This document shows positions 1,828 to 15,462 of a stretch of DNA of 56,007 bases, in pieces. Below the pieces are notes generated by a model, which searched no databases, was not told the origin of the DNA, and saw only the letters and a list, made by a program, of their open reading frames with translations. The position numbers and the translations under genes were made by a program. Location: positions 1 through 56,007 of the IMG/VR virus record IMGVR_UViG_3300042389_001858; one strand, given 5' to 3'. Origin of the DNA: a virus. Lineage: Duplodnaviria > Caudoviricetes. Each line of letters begins with the position of its first letter. Positions within the stretch are counted from its first letter, which is position 1.

Positions 1828-1848
1828 CCAATCCCCGGTAAGCGTATG
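1823..1848 (+). promoter_or_regulatory. GTTGAC-N15-18-start motif (first copy; putative late promoter)
   Basis: TTGAC at 1824 lies 17 nt before the portal ATG. The same motif occurs with TTGAC at 4836, 5081, 5290, 11396, 11926, 15501, 18944, 26380, 34401, 40983, 41489, 42098, 50018 and 50897, and at 16735 with a 22-nt gap. Confidence 0.75.
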
Positions 1849-3570
1849 AATTTTCTCGATCGGGCGGTTTCGTTTTTCAATCCCCAGGCAGGCGTCCAGC
1901 GGGCGTTTGCGCGGGAGAAGCTCAAGGCGTTTGGATACGATGCGGCGCATCCGGGCACGGCGCGGGGCGGGAGCGGGGGGCGGAACAAAAATGCGTCCTC
2001 GGAAACTTGGCGCTCCCAGCGGGATCGGGTGCTTCTCATGTGGGATGCGCGGGATGTGGTGAGGAATTTCGCGCTCCTGCGCGGCATCGTGGCCCGCATC
2101 GTGCAGTATGTGGCCGATACCGTGCAGTATGTGTCGCAGACGGGGGATGAGGAGATCGATTCGCTCTACCAGGATTATTTCCATGCGTGGTGCGAGCGGG
2201 CGGACATCACGGGGCGTCACCGCCTCGGCGATCTGGTGTGGATGCTGGTGTGGGCGATCATCGTGGATGGCGACCACGGGTGGCATATCGTTTCCGTGGA
2301 TGAGAATGGCAAGCAAGTGCCAAAAATCCAACCCATCGAGGCCGACCGCATCGGGGATCCGAACAGCCCGATCAACCCCGGCGAGGACAACAATATCGGC
2401 GGGATTTTTGTGGATGAGATGGGGCGTCCGCTGAGCTACAAAATCTTCAAGCGCGAACGCCGCACGGCGCAGTATTCTTTTGACCGCGAGGTTCCTGCGG
2501 ATCAATTCATCCACATTTTCGATCCGCAACGGGTGGATCAATATCGGGGCGTCTCGGCCTTGGCCACGGCGATCGCGCCCGCCCGCGATCTTTACGAGAT
2601 TTACCAGTTCGAGAAAACGGCGGCGAAGTGGCAGGCGGGCTACGCAGGGTTTGTGAAAACGCCCGATCCCACGCGCGGCGATGGGGGCGTTTCCGCTTGG
2701 AATGGCACGACTACCGGCAAGCCGGGTGCCTCGCCCATGGGCCTCATGGAAGTGGCCCCAGGAAAAATCCAACGCCTCGCGGCGGGCGAGGATATCCAAT
2801 TCGCCCCCGGCACGAGCCGTCCGGGCGGGGCGTTCATGGCGCTGGTGCAGGTGATGGTGCGCGAGATTTCCAGCGGGCTGAATATGCCGTATGGGTTCCT
2901 TTATGACATGACGGCGTTCTCGGGCCACACGGGGCGCATCGAGATCGCGCAGGCGATGCGCGGCATTCGCCGGATGCAAAAACTCGTCGGCGAGAGAGCA
3001 TTGAATCCCGTGCGGGATGCGGTGATCGGCTACGGCATCGGCATGGGCGAGTTGCCGCCGCATCCGCAATGGCGTAATGGCCGGTGGGGCTTCGGGCGTT
3101 CCCTCACGGGGGACTACGGGCACGATACCACGGCAAATCTCCAGATGCTTCAGAACGGCCTTGTCACGGCCAGCGATTTGATTTCCGAGACGGGGCAGAG
3201 TTTCGAGGAAGTGGTGAGGCGCAGCGCGAGCGAAGTGGCGTATATGCAACGGGTCGCCACCGAGACGGGAGTTCCGATCGAACTCTTCAACCAGCGGATT
3301 CCGAATCCCACGCAAGCCCTCGCCGCGATGGCCGAGCCGCCGCAACCCCCGCCGCCGGGCCTCGTCCCGCAAGGTATGGATGTGAAGCCGCTCTTGGAGT
3401 TGCTGAAAAATGTGGGCGAGGGGATCATTGATCGGGAGAGCGCGATCATCAACTTGATGAATCTCTACGGCGTGGAACGAATGGCGGCGGAAAAAATGGT
3501 GCCGGACGGGCCGGGGGAGAAGAAGGGTTTGACCGCGGAGGACGCGGAGAACGCGGAGCGTGGGAAATGA
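1846..3570 (+). CDS. Phage portal protein, lambda family
   Basis: ARDVVRN, IEADRI, HIFDPQRVDQYRGVS and RLAAGEDIQF are typical of lambda gpB-type portals. Position is upstream of the head genes. Confidence 0.92.
   Translation: MNFLDRAVSFFNPQAGVQRAFAREKLKAFGYDAAHPGTARGGSGGRNKNASSETWRSQRDRVLLMWDARDVVRNFALLRGIVARIVQYVADTVQYVSQTGDEEIDSLYQDYFHAWCERADITGRHRLGDLVWMLVWAIIVDGDHGWHIVSVDENGKQVPKIQPIEADRIGDPNSPINPGEDNNIGGIFVDEMGRPLSYKIFKRERRTAQYSFDREVPADQFIHIFDPQRVDQYRGVSALATAIAPARDLYEIYQFEKTAAKWQAGYAGFVKTPDPTRGDGGVSAWNGTTTGKPGASPMGLMEVAPGKIQRLAAGEDIQFAPGTSRPGGAFMALVQVMVREISSGLNMPYGFLYDMTAFSGHTGRIEIAQAMRGIRRMQKLVGERALNPVRDAVIGYGIGMGELPPHPQWRNGRWGFGRSLTGDYGHDTTANLQMLQNGLVTASDLISETGQSFEEVVRRSASEVAYMQRVATETGVPIELFNQRIPNPTQALAAMAEPPQPPPPGLVPQGMDVKPLLELLKNVGEGIIDRESAIINLMNLYGVERMAAEKMVPDGPGEKKGLTAEDAENAERGK
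3532..3558 (+). repeat. 3x 9-bp tandem repeat (NNCGCGGAG) encoding TAEDAENAE at the portal C-terminus
   Basis: accgcggag-gacgcggag-aacgcggag. Confidence 0.7.
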
Positions 3571-4544
3571 AACTTTCGGATACGGAAAAAGCGGTTTTCC
3601 GTCATTATTATCGCAAGCTCAAGAAGCTGACGCGCAAGGGCGGGCTTCGTGACGGAAAGGCTGAATCGCTTGGGATTGGCGGCGTTATGCCTGATATGGC
3701 GTGGAAGGATAAGGCAGCCGGGTTATTATGGCGGGGGGCAGGGCGGCAGGAAATTGAGAAACTGGCTGGGGATGGAAGATTTGTAAGCCAATGGTCGCAC
3801 GCGCTTGGAAAGTCCAGAACCTATACAGCAAGTCTTCCTCGCCGTGCTGCTGGGTATGCCGAGAGCAAATCCGACCCGCGAGTTTATGCTATTTCTCCAA
3901 CGGCATTCAAAAGATCCGATGAACGGGTTCGCCAAGTAAACCACTCTCCAAGCACCACGGCCCCGATACGCGGCGGCATTTTCCGGCATGAGGTTCGTGG
4001 CATTCTCAAGGGATCCGATGGCGGCGCGGACGAGTATGGTCGGAAAAAAGTGCGCTGGCGGCCAGCCTCTTTGGGCGATGTTCAGAATCGGAATTTCTCC
4101 GCCAAGCTCCGCATCAGGGCTCTATGTGCCAAGCTCCGCTTGGTCGAGTTTGGCTACACGAAGCCGGGGTTGCGGGCGCGGATCAAGGCGCGGATCATGG
4201 CGAGTTCCAAGGGCGGGCGTCCAGGCCAATGGAGTGCGCGGAAGGCTCAGCTTGTGGCGCAAGAGTATCGGGCCGAGGGCGGTGGCTACAAGGGCGGCAA
4301 GACGGAATCCCAGAAATCCCTCCGCAAGTGGACGCGGGAAAAGTGGCGCACGCGATCCGGCAAGCCCAGCACACAGGGAAGCGAGGCTACGGGCGAGCGA
4401 TACCTGCCCGACAAGGCGCACAAGAGCCTTTCGCCACAAGAGTATGGGGCCACGACTCGCGCCAAGCGGGAAGGATCGCGGCGCGGCGAGCAATTCGTGA
4501 GGCAGCCCGAGCGCATCGCCAAAAAAACGGCACGGCACCGATGA
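3567..4544 (+). CDS. Two-module basic protein with a DUF5872-like C-terminal domain after an internal tag (putative head cargo)
   Basis: The linker FSAKLRIRALCAKLRLVEFG (4095-4154) is followed by YTKPGLR..SSKGGRPGQWSARKAQL..GGGYKG..ERYLP, which I recognise as the DUF5872-type family. Confidence 0.7.
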   Translation: MKLSDTEKAVFRHYYRKLKKLTRKGGLRDGKAESLGIGGVMPDMAWKDKAAGLLWRGAGRQEIEKLAGDGRFVSQWSHALGKSRTYTASLPRRAAGYAESKSDPRVYAISPTAFKRSDERVRQVNHSPSTTAPIRGGIFRHEVRGILKGSDGGADEYGRKKVRWRPASLGDVQNRNFSAKLRIRALCAKLRLVEFGYTKPGLRARIKARIMASSKGGRPGQWSARKAQLVAQEYRAEGGGYKGGKTESQKSLRKWTREKWRTRSGKPSTQGSEATGERYLPDKAHKSLSPQEYGATTRAKREGSRRGEQFVRQPERIAKKTARHR

Positions 4545-4744
4545 GCGACCACGCCGACGAGTTGTATTTTTTGTTGAATGATGCGATCTCGTATCTGCAC
4601 CACCATGGGCACGGGGAAAAGGCCCGACAGATACAAAAGGATCGGGACAAGATTATGGAGAGCATTGAGTGGTTTCCAGCGCGCGGCAGCGAGGGCGGCT
4701 CGCCACTAAGTCGTGGCTCGGGGCGGGCGAGTAGGCGTTCGTAA
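4541..4744 (+). CDS. Small hypothetical protein
   Basis: ATGA overlap with the upstream stop. The 3' third overlaps the predicted RNA structure. Confidence 0.45.
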   Translation: MSDHADELYFLLNDAISYLHHHGHGEKARQIQKDRDKIMESIEWFPARGSEGGSPLSRGSGRASRRS

Positions 4745-4835
4745 GGACGGTCCGAGGCCCTTACTCGACGCGGTGCAAGCCGCGCTTTATCGAGGAAGCG
4801 CATCGAGCGGCCGAGCGACCTGGCCCGCGCGCTGG
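4676..4835 (+). ncRNA. Candidate structured RNA (multibranch, GNRA tetraloops)
   Basis: Perfect 11-bp closing stem 4676-4686/4825-4835. Inner 8-bp stem 4728-4735/4760-4767. Hairpins cgttc-GTAA-ggacg, cgcggt-GCAA-gccgcg and gcgag/ctcgc. Confidence 0.5.
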
Positions 4836-4856
4836 TTGACTTTCGGGATATTCATC

Positions 4857-5084
4857 GTGAAAACACAATCCCTCTCAGCCAATCAATCGAAAAAGTTCAG
4901 CAAGACAATTCGCCTCCCCGAGGGGTGGGTGGGGCCGCGCGAGCGGCGGTGGTTTGTGGAGTTGAAGGCCGATATGGCGCGCGCCGAGCAATACTTTTGG
5001 CGACAAACTCCAGAGCGGCGGAAAGTCCAGAGGGAATACTTGAGGGGCAAGACTTGGGGGAATAACAACTTTTGCTTCAGTTGA
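4857..5084 (+). CDS. Small basic hypothetical protein (GTG start)
   Basis: GTG lies 16 nt after GTTGAC. The stop TGA falls inside the next GTTGAC. Confidence 0.6.
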   Translation: MKTQSLSANQSKKFSKTIRLPEGWVGPRERRWFVELKADMARAEQYFWRQTPERRKVQREYLRGKTWGNNNFCFS

Positions 5085-5100
5085 CTGGAGTGTTGGCGGT

Positions 5101-8100
5101 ATGTCGCTGCCGCTGATTGAAAAAGCCTACGATTTATACAAGACAAAAAAGAAACGGCCCTGGGCGTTTAAGAAGGCCGCGGATTCTGCGAAACTGCTAA
5201 GCCCTGCGCAGAGTGCCCAGCTGTTCAAGTTGGCAAAAGGCATGAGGAAATCGGCAAATCCCGAGCTTTATCCCGAGCAGATGCGGTTGTTGACGGTGGG
5301 GCGCTCGGGTATGAAGTTGCGCGAATTTCGTTATTACCCCTACCCTGGCAATCCTTACGATAAGGATTTTGCCCAAGAGCGTGAAAAGGAACGGCGGCAC
5401 GGGCTGATCAAGGCCGGGTTGGTGGGGGCGGGCTTGCTGGGTGGCGGCGCGCTGGTGGGGCGCGGGTTATTTAGGGCGGGCGTAAGTGCTGCTGCGCGTC
5501 GTGCCGATGACTTGGCGCGGGAGGTTGATTTTCTGAAAACTGCGAAAAAGGCCGAGAAATTGGATGAGGTCGCCCCTGCCGCAAAGTCCCGCAAGCCGAT
5601 CAAAGTCGCCGCCACGCCTCCGCCCGCTCCGAAAACGACGCTGCCGCCGCCTCCGCCGCCAGCGCCTCCCGCCGCGGTGGATAAAAGCATCCAGGCTGAG
5701 GGGCGCAAGCGCGCGCCCGTGCAGACGAAGGCCATCGAGCAGTTGAAGGACAGCGGCCAGATCAGTCAGTCCGATGCTACCGCCGAAATCCAAGAGATCG
5801 TAGCCGGAGCAAAGCCTACGCGTAAACTCACTCCAAGGCAACAGGTTTTGGCAAAGCGGCAAGCGAAGGTCGCTAAATTCGCGTCTGCCCAATCGTCGGC
5901 TGCTCCTGCGCCCGCCGTTCCGAAGGCGCCCGCGCCTCCCAAGGCGAAGCCAAAAGCGGCGCCCGCGCCTGTTCCCGCCGCGCGCGCGAGTGATGAGTTT
6001 TGGGAGAAGGAGGGTCTTGGCAAGGTTCCGCTTACAGGCACGCCCGAGCAGAACGCCGCCCTGCGCAAAAAGTTGGAAGAGACTTATGCCGCCGGGGGAT
6101 TCAAGGGAAGGGTCAAGGGCGATGTGATCGATGATGTTCGTGCATCCCTGGCAAAAGCGGGTGAGTCAGCTGGAAAATCCGATTTTCCGCCGGGACTCAG
6201 CGAGGCGCTTCGGCAGGAGGCGAAGAAAAGCAACCCGCCCAAGGCTGCCAAAAAATCCAAGAAATCAAAAGCTGAGGATGATGATTTGGATGATCCGGGC
6301 GCCTCTCCTGAAGAGGCGGAATGGGAGGAGGCTCTTAATAAAAACCAAAAACCAGAGCCGAAATCCAAGTCAAAGGCGTCCAAGGCCCCCGCTAAAGGCG
6401 AGAAGCTTTCCTACGCAGAAAAAATCGCCGCCCGCGTCAAGGCGAAGCGCCAAAAGAAAAAAAATCTCGCCGACCGCCTACGCGGCATCCGGTATTTCAA
6501 TTTTCAGACCGACGAAGGCGGCATTCCTTTCACCGGCAAGGTGGCGAAAGACCGCTTCATTAAGCAAATTCGCGATCAGGACTTGCGCCGCCGCGATTCC
6601 AATCTGCTTCGTGCCGGTGCGGCGGGGGCTTTGGCCGGGGTGCTTTTCCGCGGCAGGCTTTCCATGGGCAGGCGCGCGCTGATTGGGGCGGGTTTGGGTG
6701 CCGGAGGAGTGATTGGCACGAGGGCGATCACTGATCGCACCCGCGATGTTTACGGCGAACGCAGCCACGAGGCCATGCGCGCCGAAGCCCTCCCGGCCAT
6801 TGCCGGACTCGGCACCGCCGGATGGCTCGCCACCCGCCGCATCCGCGGCCTGGCCGCAAAGTTTCGCGGGGTGAAGGAGTTTTCGATTCTCAATAAAATC
6901 TCCAACCTCACCGGCATGGCGCAAATCAAGGCCGGGCGCGAGGCTTTGGAGAAGGCGAAATCGAATAGGCAATTGAGAGATATTTATCGCGCCGATGCCA
7001 TCAAGCAGAATAAGTTCCCTTACAGAGATTCTGACCTTCAGTATGAGATCGAAAGTGGCATGAGGCATAGGGCTATTGCCAGAGGCACTTATGCTAAGTA
7101 TGATGTCCGGCGAGCCAGAAACCTCATCAACGAAGGCATCCGCCGCCGCAACATTTCCATCGGAGTCGGTGCGGGAGTTGCAGGTTTAGGCGCGGGGGCG
7201 GGGTATCTCGCCACGCGCAAGGAATCCAACCTCGCCGCGAAGCTGCGCGGCTTGAAAGAATTCGAGGACTACAAGCTCTACTACTTCAAGGGGCGCAACA
7301 CCGGCATCGCGGCCCGCAGTGCCGATGAGGCCCGGAAGAAGAAAAAGCGTGGCGGCGACGAGCTTGTGGCCGTGCGCACTCCGAACAAGACGGAACGCAG
7401 TCAGATGGCGCGAGGCATTTGGGTTCGCACCCGCCGCGATGGCAAAAGCCCCGGTCAATCCCGCTACGGCAAGGGGAGGGGACAAGGGCCAGCCCGCAAG
7501 AAAGAAATGTCCGCCAAATTTTTCGAGAAACGCGATAAGGAAAAAGGCGGGCTGAATCCCTATGTGGGCGCGGCGTTGTCGGGCTTCGGCAGCGGAGCGG
7601 CCTTGGGATCGCTGGCCCTGCTTCGGCGGGGTGCCACATTCCGCAGCGCGGCCAAGACGGCTGGAAAGCTCGGTCTGGCCTCGGCGGGAATCGTCGGCGG
7701 CGGAGCGTTGCTCGGCAGCAAGATCATCGGAAATCCCAGGGATGACGAAAGCGCGCCATTTACCAAGCGGGCCGCCATCGGCGGAGCCTTGGTGGGATCG
7801 GGCGCTGGATTGGCCGGTGCGCTCCTGCTTCGTCGGACCAAAGGCGGCGCGAGGGCGCTGGTCGGAGCATCCAAAAAAACCGAACCTTTTTCTCGCCCCG
7901 CCATGTGGCTTCGTAAAACGCCTCTCGCAGGCGCGGCGGGCATCGGCGCTCTCGGTGGTGCGCTCTACGGCGGGGCCATGGGCGCGGACGAAGGCCAGCA
8001 AGTCGATTCCATTCGCAATCTGCGAAAGGATTTGAAGAAGGAAATGTCCGCCCGTCTCCTTCGCGCGCGTCTGCGGCTGTTTGGTCGGGGGGATCAGGCG

Positions 8101-13136: not shown

Positions 13137-14096
13137 ATGCCTTACAATACCACAGATTCCGTTCCTCGGCAGGATATCAGCACTCTCCTCATGGAGGCTG
13201 TCCACCAGGAGAAACACTACATCGCCCCCATGCTTCTGCCCATCTACGGCAGCGAGCGCGAGGTCGGTCGCTATCCGAAATTCACGATCGGCAAGTGCGA
13301 GCTTCTCAAGCGCGAGAGCCAGAAGCGCGGAGCCACCGGCACTTACAACGAGAGCGAAGAACTCTTCGAATGGGACAGCTACCAGACCGCTGAATACGGC
13401 CACGAGAAACGCATCGATGATGTCGTGCGCAAGCAAATGCGCGACTTCTTCGACGCGGAAATGGTCACGGCCAAGTTCTGCTCGAACAAGCTGATGCTGG
13501 ATTACGAAGTGGAGGCGGCTACCGCCCTCTACAATCCCTCAACCTTCACCGCCACCTCGGCGGGCACCGCCTACACCGAGGCGAACCTCGACACCATGGA
13601 TGTCCCTGCGGATATCAATGCGCTCATCGAGTCGCTCACCCTCGTCGGCGAAGAACCGAACACGATGGTCCTGAGTCTCCCGCTCTTCAACCGCATCAAG
13701 CGCTCGAAGAAGCTCCAGACCTACCTCTACGGCCACCTGAACACCACGCAGGGCGGCTCGAACATCACCAGCCAGATCATTGCCGACGCCTTTGGCATCG
13801 CCAATGTCATCGTCGCCAAGAAGAGCCACGACAACGCCATCAAAGGCAAAACCAATGTCGTGCCCGTCTGGTCGAACAACTACATCTGGATCGGCGATGT
13901 GCAGGGCGGCGACTTCATGAACGGCGGCGCTGGCCGCACGATCATCTGGGATGCCGACTCCGAAGGCGGTCTCTTCACCTCGGATCAATACCGCGACGAA
14001 GCCCGCCGCGGCGACAAGATCCGCGTGCGCAGCAACCGCGTGATCAAGATCATCAACCCGAATTCGGCCCGTCTCATCACGACGAACTGGGCCTAA
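13137..14096 (+). CDS. Major capsid protein
   Basis: 319 aa with EPNTMVLS and strongly C-ending codons. Position follows scaffold and decoration genes. Confidence 0.85.
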   Translation: MPYNTTDSVPRQDISTLLMEAVHQEKHYIAPMLLPIYGSEREVGRYPKFTIGKCELLKRESQKRGATGTYNESEELFEWDSYQTAEYGHEKRIDDVVRKQMRDFFDAEMVTAKFCSNKLMLDYEVEAATALYNPSTFTATSAGTAYTEANLDTMDVPADINALIESLTLVGEEPNTMVLSLPLFNRIKRSKKLQTYLYGHLNTTQGGSNITSQIIADAFGIANVIVAKKSHDNAIKGKTNVVPVWSNNYIWIGDVQGGDFMNGGAGRTIIWDADSEGGLFTSDQYRDEARRGDKIRVRSNRVIKIINPNSARLITTNWA

Positions 14097-14152: not shown

Positions 14153-14226
14153 CGCAGGATAGAGAAATGGTATCTCACAAGGCCCATAACCTTGGGTTTC
14201 GGGTTCAACTCCCGATCCTGCTACCA
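14153..14226 (+). tRNA. tRNA-Met(CAT), initiator-like
   Basis: Cloverleaf cgcagga-ta-gaga/tctc-caagg-CCCATAA-ccttg-tcggg-TTCAACT-cccga-tcctgct-A-CCA. The C1:U72 pair is unpaired and CCA is encoded. Confidence 0.88.
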
Positions 14227-14245
14227 CCTTCCACACCACAACCGC

Positions 14246-14280
14246 TGGCAGACCGGTCCCGCAAGTCTGCCATTTTTTTT
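14246..14280 (+). terminator. Intrinsic terminator
   Basis: tggcagac/gtctgcca 8-bp stem followed by T8. Confidence 0.8.
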
Positions 14281-14799
14281 ATGAAGAAACTCGACCTTAA
14301 GACCAACCTCCGCGAACTCGCGGCACGCTCCGAAAAACTCAAGGAATTCGCCATGGTGCGAGCCGCCGATGGCCGCTTCATCGAAGTGGACGAGGAGGAT
14401 GCGGGCATGAGTGCAGGCACGGCGATCAAAGCCGGAGCCGGAGCTGCCGCCTTGGGTGGCGCAGGCTACGGAGCCTACCGTGGCCATCAGGCAATCATGG
14501 GCAAATACGGCACTCGCGGCTTGCTCGAAAACATCGATCCCAAGCTCCCTGCCGCCTACGCCAAGACTTCCGCCGCAGGCACCGCCGCCGCTTCGCCGAT
14601 GCAGGCCTACCGCTCCGCCGCCACGGATCTCGGCAACACCATTTCCAGCCGCGCCAGCCAAGGCTTGGCCGCCGGCAAAACGGCTTATGCCCGCCTCGGC
14701 GACCGCGCCACAGCGGCAGCCAAATACCCTGGCTTCACGCTCGGCCGCATCGGCCGCGCCATCCGCAAGGGCCTCGGCGCAGCGCTCAAGCTCCGCTGA
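14281..14799 (+). CDS. Tagged glycine-zipper protein (putative head cargo)
   Basis: Starts MKKLDLKTNLRELAARSEKLKEFA. Contains RAADGRF and GAGAAALGGAGYG. The ORF-track start at 14167 lies inside the tRNA and is rejected. Confidence 0.75.
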   Translation: MKKLDLKTNLRELAARSEKLKEFAMVRAADGRFIEVDEEDAGMSAGTAIKAGAGAAALGGAGYGAYRGHQAIMGKYGTRGLLENIDPKLPAAYAKTSAAGTAAASPMQAYRSAATDLGNTISSRASQGLAAGKTAYARLGDRATAAAKYPGFTLGRIGRAIRKGLGAALKLR

Positions 14800-15337: not shown

Positions 15338-15421
15338 AAATTTCCAGCGTGGAGAAGGGCAAGCCGTGAGTGCCCCGGGGGTGGGTGTCTTTGTCGTTTT
15401 CAGCGCCTCTAACTGCCGCAA

Positions 15422-15462
15422 GCCGCCAGCGGCTCCTCCGAACCACGGAGGCGGCGTTTTTT
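15422..15462 (+). terminator. Probable intrinsic terminator
   Basis: cctccg/cggagg stem, extendable by gccgc/gcggc, followed by T6. Confidence 0.6.

Follow-up and report, generated by a model that had tools for sequence, protein, structure and literature searches.

What kind of element occupies positions 4676-4835, on the + strand, in the head region of the tailed-phage genome IMGVR_UViG_3300042389_001858? All positions refer to the window, the full stretch of 56,007 nucleotides (nt) of this IMG/VR virus record (Duplodnaviria; Caudoviricetes), and labels such as L021 or L027 denote the IMG/VR loci or contigs with which it was compared. The initial annotation, made from the letters alone, had read the block as a multibranch fold and as an undescribed phage non-coding RNA (ncRNA) or cis-regulator. 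Its sequence and coordinates are correct: CCAGCGCGCGG (4676-4686) and CCGCGCGCTGG (4825-4835) are read at these positions and form a perfect 11-bp inverted repeat with a spacing of 138 nt. Comparison with homologues indicates that the element belongs to what is almost certainly a genuine conserved family of structured RNAs. The element is selected as folded RNA on the + strand, and the family, which has a length range of 137-164 nt, is phage-specific, absent from Rfam and previously uncatalogued.

Judged from the window alone, both the 11-bp stem and the folding energy are within chance for such GC-rich DNA. The window holds six perfect inverted repeats of at least 11 bp within 200 nt, compared with 3.7 ± 2.1 in block-wise dinucleotide shuffles, of which 17 in 100 reach six. 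The minimum free energy (MFE) of the element is -85.3 kcal/mol versus -76.8 ± 4.6 kcal/mol for shuffled sequences (RNAfold z of -1.85 on the + strand, with 12 of 200 shuffles equally stable), and the opposite strand gives a z of -2.06. The initial annotation had stated that an ordinary folding energy, together with missing covariation and no discrete transcript, would speak against an RNA. The energy is ordinary, but the covariation is strong.

Homologues were found in 49 further IMG/VR viral contigs. The large collections were scanned by exact patterns only, and the covariance model R1, for which the window sequence was itself among the 29 sequences used, was run on selected sources. A degenerate pattern over the P6a-region hairpin (helix names as in Table 1) matched 8 IMG/VR contigs, and a 24-nt P2-P3 pattern matched 37 IMG/VR contigs and, in an exact-pattern scan of 185,579 prokaryotic species (one genome each), none. 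A gapped pattern added three true members and L054, which was rejected as a chance match. An exact 22-mer from the 3' half of the element gave no matches, and scans based on gene C, the gene downstream of the window copy, returned one locus from metagenome contigs, already known, and none from genome contigs, adding nothing. Run over 50 sources, R1 recovered 38 full-length members at 140-184 bits, and the truncated copies of L028, L038 and L047 scored 64.9 bits; in these three, the 3' half of the RNA after GGAAGCGC is replaced by unrelated sequence, followed by a 101-amino-acid (aa) PHROG 419 gene (unknown function). The model then found five more copies upstream of a protease-like gene (four full, one cut by the contig end) and, on whole records, a 137-nt form in 4 of 4 of the window's own relatives, with no match in the 8-kb loci around gene C of these relatives. 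A second, weak match elsewhere in L015 (13.9 bits, E 0.49) was taken as noise. In the 56-kb window, only the element is matched by cmsearch (match bounds 4674-4837), over the full length of the model, which makes the window copy a member of the family.

The alignments carry strong compensatory covariation. Among 38 sequences, window included, 31 are distinct. The MAFFT alignment A4 holds 29 sequences, omitting the 3'-truncated L028, L038 and L047 (one distinct sequence) and L041 (near-identical to L025); on these, RNAalifold predicts 40 pairs, 20 of them with compensatory double changes. In A4, 98.3% of cells are paired, none of 500 shuffles reaches any of five measures, and slid controls show double changes in at most 8 pairs. 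In the 35-sequence alignment A7, which adds three divergent copies and three pattern-found additions, 94.4% of cells are paired and 23 of 46 pairs show double changes, a result reached by none of 500 shuffles. About 156 of the 1602 paired cells in A7 (summed) are G-U, which would be A-C mismatches on the opposite strand, and the arm loops read GNRA or UUCG on the + strand only. These two features place the RNA on the + strand and confirm across the family the same argument made earlier from the window's own GNRA loops and G-U pairs. The 29 members of A4 are 144-164 nt long and fall into modulo-3 classes of 16, 7 and 6, and this mixture of lengths excludes protein coding, for which no frame signal was seen either.

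In the consensus fold, the long helix P1 closes the structure and leads into a three-way junction (P1/P2/P3); beyond an asymmetric internal loop lies the second such junction (P4/P5/P6), and P3/P4 connect the two (Table 1). All mapped pairs are canonical in the window copy. The core, comprising P3 (GUCGU/GCGAC) and the block CCGAGCGACCUGG, is invariant, while the outer arms P5 and P6a vary freely and are GNRA/UUCG-capped: the P5 arm differs in length and sequence among members, and P6a is swapped in other members for UUCG- or GAAA-capped hairpins or for a short loop. The invariance of P2 is owed partly to the search pattern used. Placed on the window sequence, the consensus structure has an energy of -69 to -75 kcal/mol versus the MFE of -85 kcal/mol, and the single-sequence fold and four of the seven helices first proposed consequently deviate from it. 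Homologue covariation bears out the other three, namely the outer stem, CGTTC-GTAA-GGACG (4736-4749) and CGCGG..CCGCG (4769-4784). For two of the four, covariation assigns another partner: GCTCGG (4716-21) pairs with TCGAGC (4803-08) instead of CCGAGC (4811-16), and CTTAC-TCGA (4760-68) pairs with TCGAG-GAAG (4790-98) instead of CGAGTAGG. The remaining two, GCGAG/CTCGC and CGCTTT/GAAGCG, are window-specific and find no support in homologues.

Table 1. Positions of the RNA element, its helices, neighbouring features and family contexts (window coordinates unless a locus is named)
Feature	Position	Strand	Remarks
Whole RNA element	4676-4835	+	160 nt; cmsearch with R1: 150.2 bits, E 2.5e-33, model positions 1-161
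P1	4676-4686 / 4825-4835	+	double compensatory changes in 10 of 15 P1 pairs (35 sequences)
P1 extension	4689-90/4823-24 and 4692-93/4820-21	+	
P2 hairpin, GGCG-NNN-CGCC	4694-97/4701-04	+	3-nt loop variable; 100% of cells paired; G-C to G-U in 4 sequences
J2/3 (ACUAA)	4705-4709	+	
P3, GUCGU/GCGAC	4710-14/4815-19	+	no change in any of 35 sequences, among them divergent copies recovered independently of the P2-P3 pattern
P4	4716-21/4803-08	+	double changes in 4 of 6 pairs (GCUCGG/UCGAGC, GCUUGG/UCAAGC, GCUCUA/UAGAGC)
P5 arm	4725-4760	+	base GGGC/GCCC, internal loop, GUAA-capped hairpin 4736-4740/4745-4749; 5 of 5 hairpin pairs covary
P6	4761-62/4796-97 and 4764-68/4790-94	+	covariation in 3 of 7 pairs
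P6a hairpin inside P6	4769-73/4780-84	+	loop UGCAAG
P3 3' strand, P1 extension and P1 3' strand	4815-4835	+	within invariant block CCGAGCGACCUGG
Relatives' RNA site, just upstream of SSB gene	15338-15460	+	empty in window; no R1 match
Portal gene	1846-3570	+	
Gene A (325 aa)	3567-4544	+	after portal; Pfam and PHROG scans
Orphan open reading frame (ORF) B (67 aa)	4541-4744	+	ATGA overlap with stop of gene A; first 45 codons look coding
Gene C (75 aa)	4857-5084	+	GTG 4857 likely start; conserved from about 4872
1291-aa gene	starts 5101	+	follows gene C
TTGAC motif	4836-4840	+	directly 3' of RNA; 16 nt before GTG 4857
abiF hairpins	L018 11177-11213; L024 5576-5612; L027 6613-6649; L034 3218-3254	same as RNA	
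abiF hairpins	L035 3713-3749; L037 5026-5062; L048 2969-3005; L064 1439-1475	same as RNA	
Context: between ~160-aa gene and protease-like gene			most loci
Context: between terminase/Zn-ribbon genes and 92-aa gene plus portal			
Context: before scaffold-like genes			
Context: before SSB gene			window's relatives
Context: before gene C			window
Context: end of unit converging on 615-aa gene			L027

No Rfam 15 family accounts for this fold. Searched with Rfam 15 (4227 models, E up to 10), positions 4000-5600 of the window and the element in 11 homologous loci gave no match, and an Rfam scan of the whole window at gathering scores found only a transfer RNA (tRNA) at 14153-14223. Likewise, tRNA-Met at 14153-14226 was the sole ARAGORN prediction in the window, and the element itself gave none in 40 loci. 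The statement that the element resembles no tRNA, hammerhead or known riboswitch is consistent with these searches, and they, together with the 150-bit R1 match and the covariation, support the view that it is undescribed. The tRNA-Met gene (CAT anticodon, + strand) lies immediately downstream of the gene for the major head protein (13137-14096), and an ORF at 14167-14799 begins inside it; type-B contigs also have a tRNA-Met in the head region. Regarding an intrinsic terminator, the scanner flags just a weak 5-pair hairpin at 4820-4835 with the tail TTGACTTTCG, and the element is a 160-nt multibranch fold. The element has no tandem repeats and its downstream partner gene is not constant, unlike a type III toxin-antitoxin RNA. 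By blastn against 50,697 GenBank phage records, no match was found for the window region or for a type-A copy, nor did the protease-like neighbour gene match anything in the GenBank phage search; the portal is about 26% identical to portals of cultured phages.

Among orphan ncRNA motifs of phages and metagenomes, GOLLD and ROOL are much larger than this RNA. With such motifs in general (GOLLD, ROOL, the Weinberg/Breaker sets and the Fremin candidates), it shares discovery by covariation, a phage-borne location and the lack of an assigned function, and its position beside a tRNA gene in one locus (a tRNA-Cys gene 53 nt downstream in L034) is a further likeness; its failure to match any Rfam 15 model is a difference. 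The phi29 packaging RNA (pRNA) is, like this one, a multi-helix phage RNA of similar size with a 5'/3' closing helix and a three-way junction, and the present family lies among packaging and head genes. In contrast to pRNA, its members match no Rfam model, and their arm loops are GNRA, UUCG or GNAN and, by inspection, not mutually complementary, as ring-forming loops would be; the terminase is of the lambda GpA type. A role as an indispensable motor component is excluded because numerous close relatives do without the RNA. Literature searches did not turn up a description of this RNA, the candidate tables of PMC10690425 being outside what was compared. In that paper, 10,006 candidate structured RNAs from IMG/VR and RNA viruses are reported (Fremin et al. 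2023, PMC10690425), and the family may be among its unnamed IMG/VR candidates.

Each of 5 near-complete genomes (36-53 kb) carries one copy of the element. Of 48 loci that share the protease-like gene, 26 are without a match. A full copy stands in 20, and the last two have, respectively, a copy that runs off the contig end and a miniature of 94 nt. Most of the 26 show an empty site, consisting of a stop codon, 20-40 nt and TTGACA-N13-ATG. Just upstream of the protease-like gene, L101 and L103 retain no more than the initial 10 nt of P1. The miniature (L095, 1385-1478; 42.8 bits) is made up of P1, some of the 5' core, a single hairpin and the GAGCGACCTGG block; all of these look like stages of reduction or loss. 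At the exact type-A RNA site, L096-L100, L102 and L104 carry a different, unrelated non-coding insert of about 150 nt, which had no Rfam match in a scan of L096; the site resembles an insertion hot spot for non-coding sequence. None of 5 near-complete genomes that have the protease-like gene without the RNA there carries a copy anywhere.

The window copy is 85% identical to that of L022, a different and unrelated phage type, and 78-80% identical to those of L015, L039 and L021, but just 67% identical to the copy of its own relatives, whose copies are 98% alike among themselves and lie about 14 kb from its site. The corresponding site is empty in the window (Table 1); a candidate RNA "scar" there was rejected (53% identity, compared with 51 ± 2.5% for shuffles). 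One copy has thus been kept while its type and position changed. The retention of a single copy with a shifting position, and of a foreign subtype at a new site where the relatives' site is empty, argues for a function selected in trans.

Such a pattern also raises the question of whether the element is a selfish miniature transposon of the miniature inverted-repeat transposable element (MITE) kind, in which the 11-bp outer "stem" would be terminal inverted repeats and no RNA function would exist. The terminal repeats, the sharp borders of the GC-rich island, the presence/absence polymorphism at one site and the three truncated copies are as expected of it, as are short high-depth contigs from other contexts in lake metagenomes. 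When contigs of four lake or subsurface metagenomes were aligned to 3800-5800, the summed depth over 4671-4871 was 3-10 times that of the flanks, and the surplus consists of short contigs that match parts of the element and then run into unrelated sequence. Nevertheless, each genome has a single copy, the terminal repeats covary, keeping their pairing over sequence with systematic G-U pairs, the internal helices covary and bear RNA-type tetraloops, and by inspection no clear target-site duplication is seen. In addition, the terminal-arm pattern recurs in IMG/VR in just 2 other viral contigs, both unrelated between the arms. A MITE is accordingly rated highly improbable. In the same metagenomic material, an independent 578-nt lake/subsurface contig covers the entire element with 3 differences, and in lake contigs T4774 and G4779, which form the U-G pair closing the GCAA loop, are deleted jointly. 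For an X5 contig that skips 4715-4799 (depth 2.7, just 27 nt on one side), cross-mapping from a shorter member of the family was preferred over a deletion as the explanation. Two further depth peaks, at 4202-4268 and 5609-5675 (3-30 times the surroundings in four lake metagenomes at ≥80% likeness), are probably conserved protein motifs common to many phages.

Regarding genomic context, members are always co-oriented with their neighbours, on the gene-coding strand, and occupy at least six different intergenic sites in the head/packaging region, starting 3-16 nt past stop codons. The carrier phages have a lambda-type portal, a GpA-type terminase and a phrog_1005 capsid protein in common. In L021, L029 and L052 a TGnTATAAT/TGnTATACT box, read by eye, lies 7 nt before P1, which suggests an own promoter in one subgroup. 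Directly after the RNA in L021, L023, L025, L029 and L052 stand a hairpin of -21.5 kcal/mol (z of -5.5, measured on L021) and UUUUU, and a U-rich run follows the RNA in about 17 type-A loci. Eight loci have, on the strand of the RNA and some 10 nt beyond its 3' end, an abiF-type hairpin (Rfam RF03085, 37 nt), which is followed by a U-run and scores 43-49 bits versus a gathering score of 37. The RNA unit of L027 converges on a 615-aa gene, so that nothing lies downstream to regulate; L048 and L035 would end in the same way, judging from flanks near-identical to those of L027. As a separate observation, direct repeats of the GGTTGATTTCGGTTG type occur after the terminator in L021, L023, L025 and L029, about 50-110 nt past the RNA and upstream of the scaffold-like gene, and CCTCTGTGT repeats stand at the corresponding place in L040 and type-B loci; both may be protein-binding iterons.

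These arrangements bear on whether the RNA is a cis element of the late or head transcript, that is, a processive antiterminator of the put/EAR kind or a leader, attenuator or riboswitch for downstream head genes. Bacillus EAR is an RNA-only processive antiterminator that resides in the operon sense strand upstream of intrinsic terminators, with no dedicated protein gene. The HK022 put RNA is, as described in PMC9378689, likewise a structured sense-strand operon RNA upstream of intrinsic terminators with no dedicated protein gene, and a strongly conserved core of the kind seen here is expected of a surface that binds a conserved machine, as the put RNA does (PMC9378689). The constant use of the coding strand and the terminators, abiF-matching hairpins with U-runs and U-rich runs described above, mostly followed by same-strand head genes, are consistent with such a role. 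In contrast, the present RNA is twice the size of put/EAR and has a different architecture. A position upstream of terminators is seen in many loci, but not in L027, where the copy ends its unit, and no terminator follows the window copy. Nor does the element behave as a riboswitch or gene-specific cis-regulator, since the downstream gene differs among at least six contexts and one context has no downstream gene. Relatives with the same protease-like gene and TTGACA-N13-ATG signal manage without the RNA, and no alternative pairing between P1 and a terminator is seen by inspection. A cis element is therefore considered unlikely.

The location of the members, intergenic and shortly after stop codons, could also suit a self-cleaving or otherwise catalytic RNA whose borders would be the processing sites of the polycistronic head transcript. 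The two-junction fold and its many invariant junction nucleotides are compatible with this idea, and phage genomes are rich in small ribozymes. On the other hand, no ribozyme model of Rfam 15 matches, no cleavage-site feature was identified, and the copies that have their own strong terminator, some of them with a -10-like box as well, would not need self-cleavage. This explanation is regarded as quite improbable.

In the window itself, the RNA had been described as filling a non-coding gap in the head region, which requires one correction. The coding signal does end exactly at 4675, but ORF B extends 69 nt into the element, where its final 22 codons coincide with the 5' portion of the RNA. 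With a codon model trained on seven neighbouring genes, the log-odds per codon are +0.38 for 4541-4675 versus -0.56 for 4676-4741. Across the element no frame signal is present, and GC content is flat at 69-77% over all three codon positions, compared with 49-54% in the flanks. ORF B has itself as its only database match, and its residues 1-44 match nothing in other loci. In the relatives found through genes A and C (L002/L012, L010=L014, L011 and L013), gene C (87-105 aa) is coupled (ATGA) directly to the upstream gene without ORF B or the RNA, and some 315 nt (4541-4856) are therefore specific to the window's lineage.

This arrangement admits one further explanation, in which a gene is split by the element, and intron-like removal or a translational bypass would join the frames of ORF B and gene C. 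Deletion of 4676-4835 (160 nt, 1 modulo 3) does join the two frames, the coding signal runs in frame 2 until 4675 and resumes in frame 0 at about 4836, and TGGTT at 4670-74 and 4833-37 flanks the element. However, one random insert in three would match frames, the homologues of gene C (87-105 aa) need no ORF B part, neither a take-off stop codon nor an intron core is present, and all other members sit after a stop codon or between the -10-like box and the terminator. An interrupted gene is the least credible of the explanations, with a very remote chance of being correct. The GTTGAC noted earlier at the 3' end of the element is present (4835-4840), and its TTGAC recurs as TTGAC(A/C/T) 14-20 nt upstream of 5 of 28 gene starts in the window (1846, 4857, 5101, 11418 and 26403), compared with 0.3 expected. 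The motif also comes after the RNA in the relatives of the window and in type-A loci, and is seen likewise in L022, L044 and the RNA-less L080-L107. A Shine-Dalgarno sequence is missing from most genes. These observations suggest an unusual gene-start signal in this group of phages or in their host. Within gene A, three imperfect repeats of the GCGGATCAAGGC type with 12-nt spacing occur at 4166-4212, and the gene A homologues of the relatives also have long internal peptide repeats.

Taken as a whole, including the structured family itself, the moderately favoured reading is that of a small RNA that is discrete, acts in trans through a conserved binding core and would be accessory and exchangeable. 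It draws on comparative sequence evidence: the single copy, the many contexts, the own terminator (with the -10-like box) in some phages, the convergent end and the xenologous window copy. Under this proposal, the invariant core would bind a partner, protein or other RNA, and regulation would not be directed at any single gene next to the RNA. In some phages the RNA would end at its own intrinsic terminator; in others, the window included, it is probably co-transcribed with head genes and would need to be cut out. It would further be an accessory cassette gained, lost and exchanged between phages, with the window copy representing a foreign subtype presumably inserted between gene A and gene C. 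For its role, the analysis leans towards host takeover or counter-defence.

Several results weigh against this trans-acting proposal. The scanner finds no promoter-like site upstream of the window copy, and the sequence downstream has no terminator-like fold (-5.7 kcal/mol, z of +0.7). In L021 the same simple promoter/terminator scanner reports nothing either, owing to its rules on loop size and the -35 box; the -10 box of L021 is a by-eye reading, and the terminator comes from the fold measurement. Most copies lie inside operons directly upstream of a gene, many followed by a terminator or U-run, which fits a cis-acting leader too, and ORF B would be translated through the 5' half of the RNA. 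Among the sequencing runs listed as containing the region, 24 are DNA and none RNA. A search for a partner protein by gene content gave a best cluster present in 4 of 7 RNA genomes and 0 of 5 RNA-less ones, with blastp clustering too insensitive even to unite the portals. Finally, part of the apparent sequence invariance stems from the recruitment of members by exact pattern.

A bolder version, held only tentatively and thought rather unlikely, is that the family represents a new class of complex-folded phage RNA that is machine-like or defence-related. It might be a decoy or antitoxin mimic against host RNA-guided or RNA-regulated defence, or a ribozyme or an RNA polymerase- or ribosome-binding regulator. 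The decoy or antitoxin form is prompted by the recurrent fusion to abiF-type hairpins and by the behaviour as an exchangeable accessory cassette. According to bioRxiv 10.1101/2025.04.15.648962, abiF-type RNAs neutralise the AbiF toxin by direct binding. The hairpin beside the RNA may be a phage decoy antitoxin, or simply a terminator. This is an association of neighbours and not homology: the 160-nt element itself has no abiF match, and no such hairpin occurs in the window.

New RNA folds of about 150 nt that are well supported, have dozens of members and combine two junctions with an invariant core are uncommon, and such folds earlier proved to be riboswitches, ribozymes or ribonucleoprotein cores. 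Single-sequence folding statistics, with a z of about -2, would have missed this genuine RNA. The family is confined to uncultivated freshwater and lake tailed phages, in which its antitoxin-type RNA hairpin neighbours mark a possible hot spot of RNA-based counter-defence. If the machine-like or defence-related reading were true, this would be the first such RNA tied to the head/packaging region of lambda-like phages.

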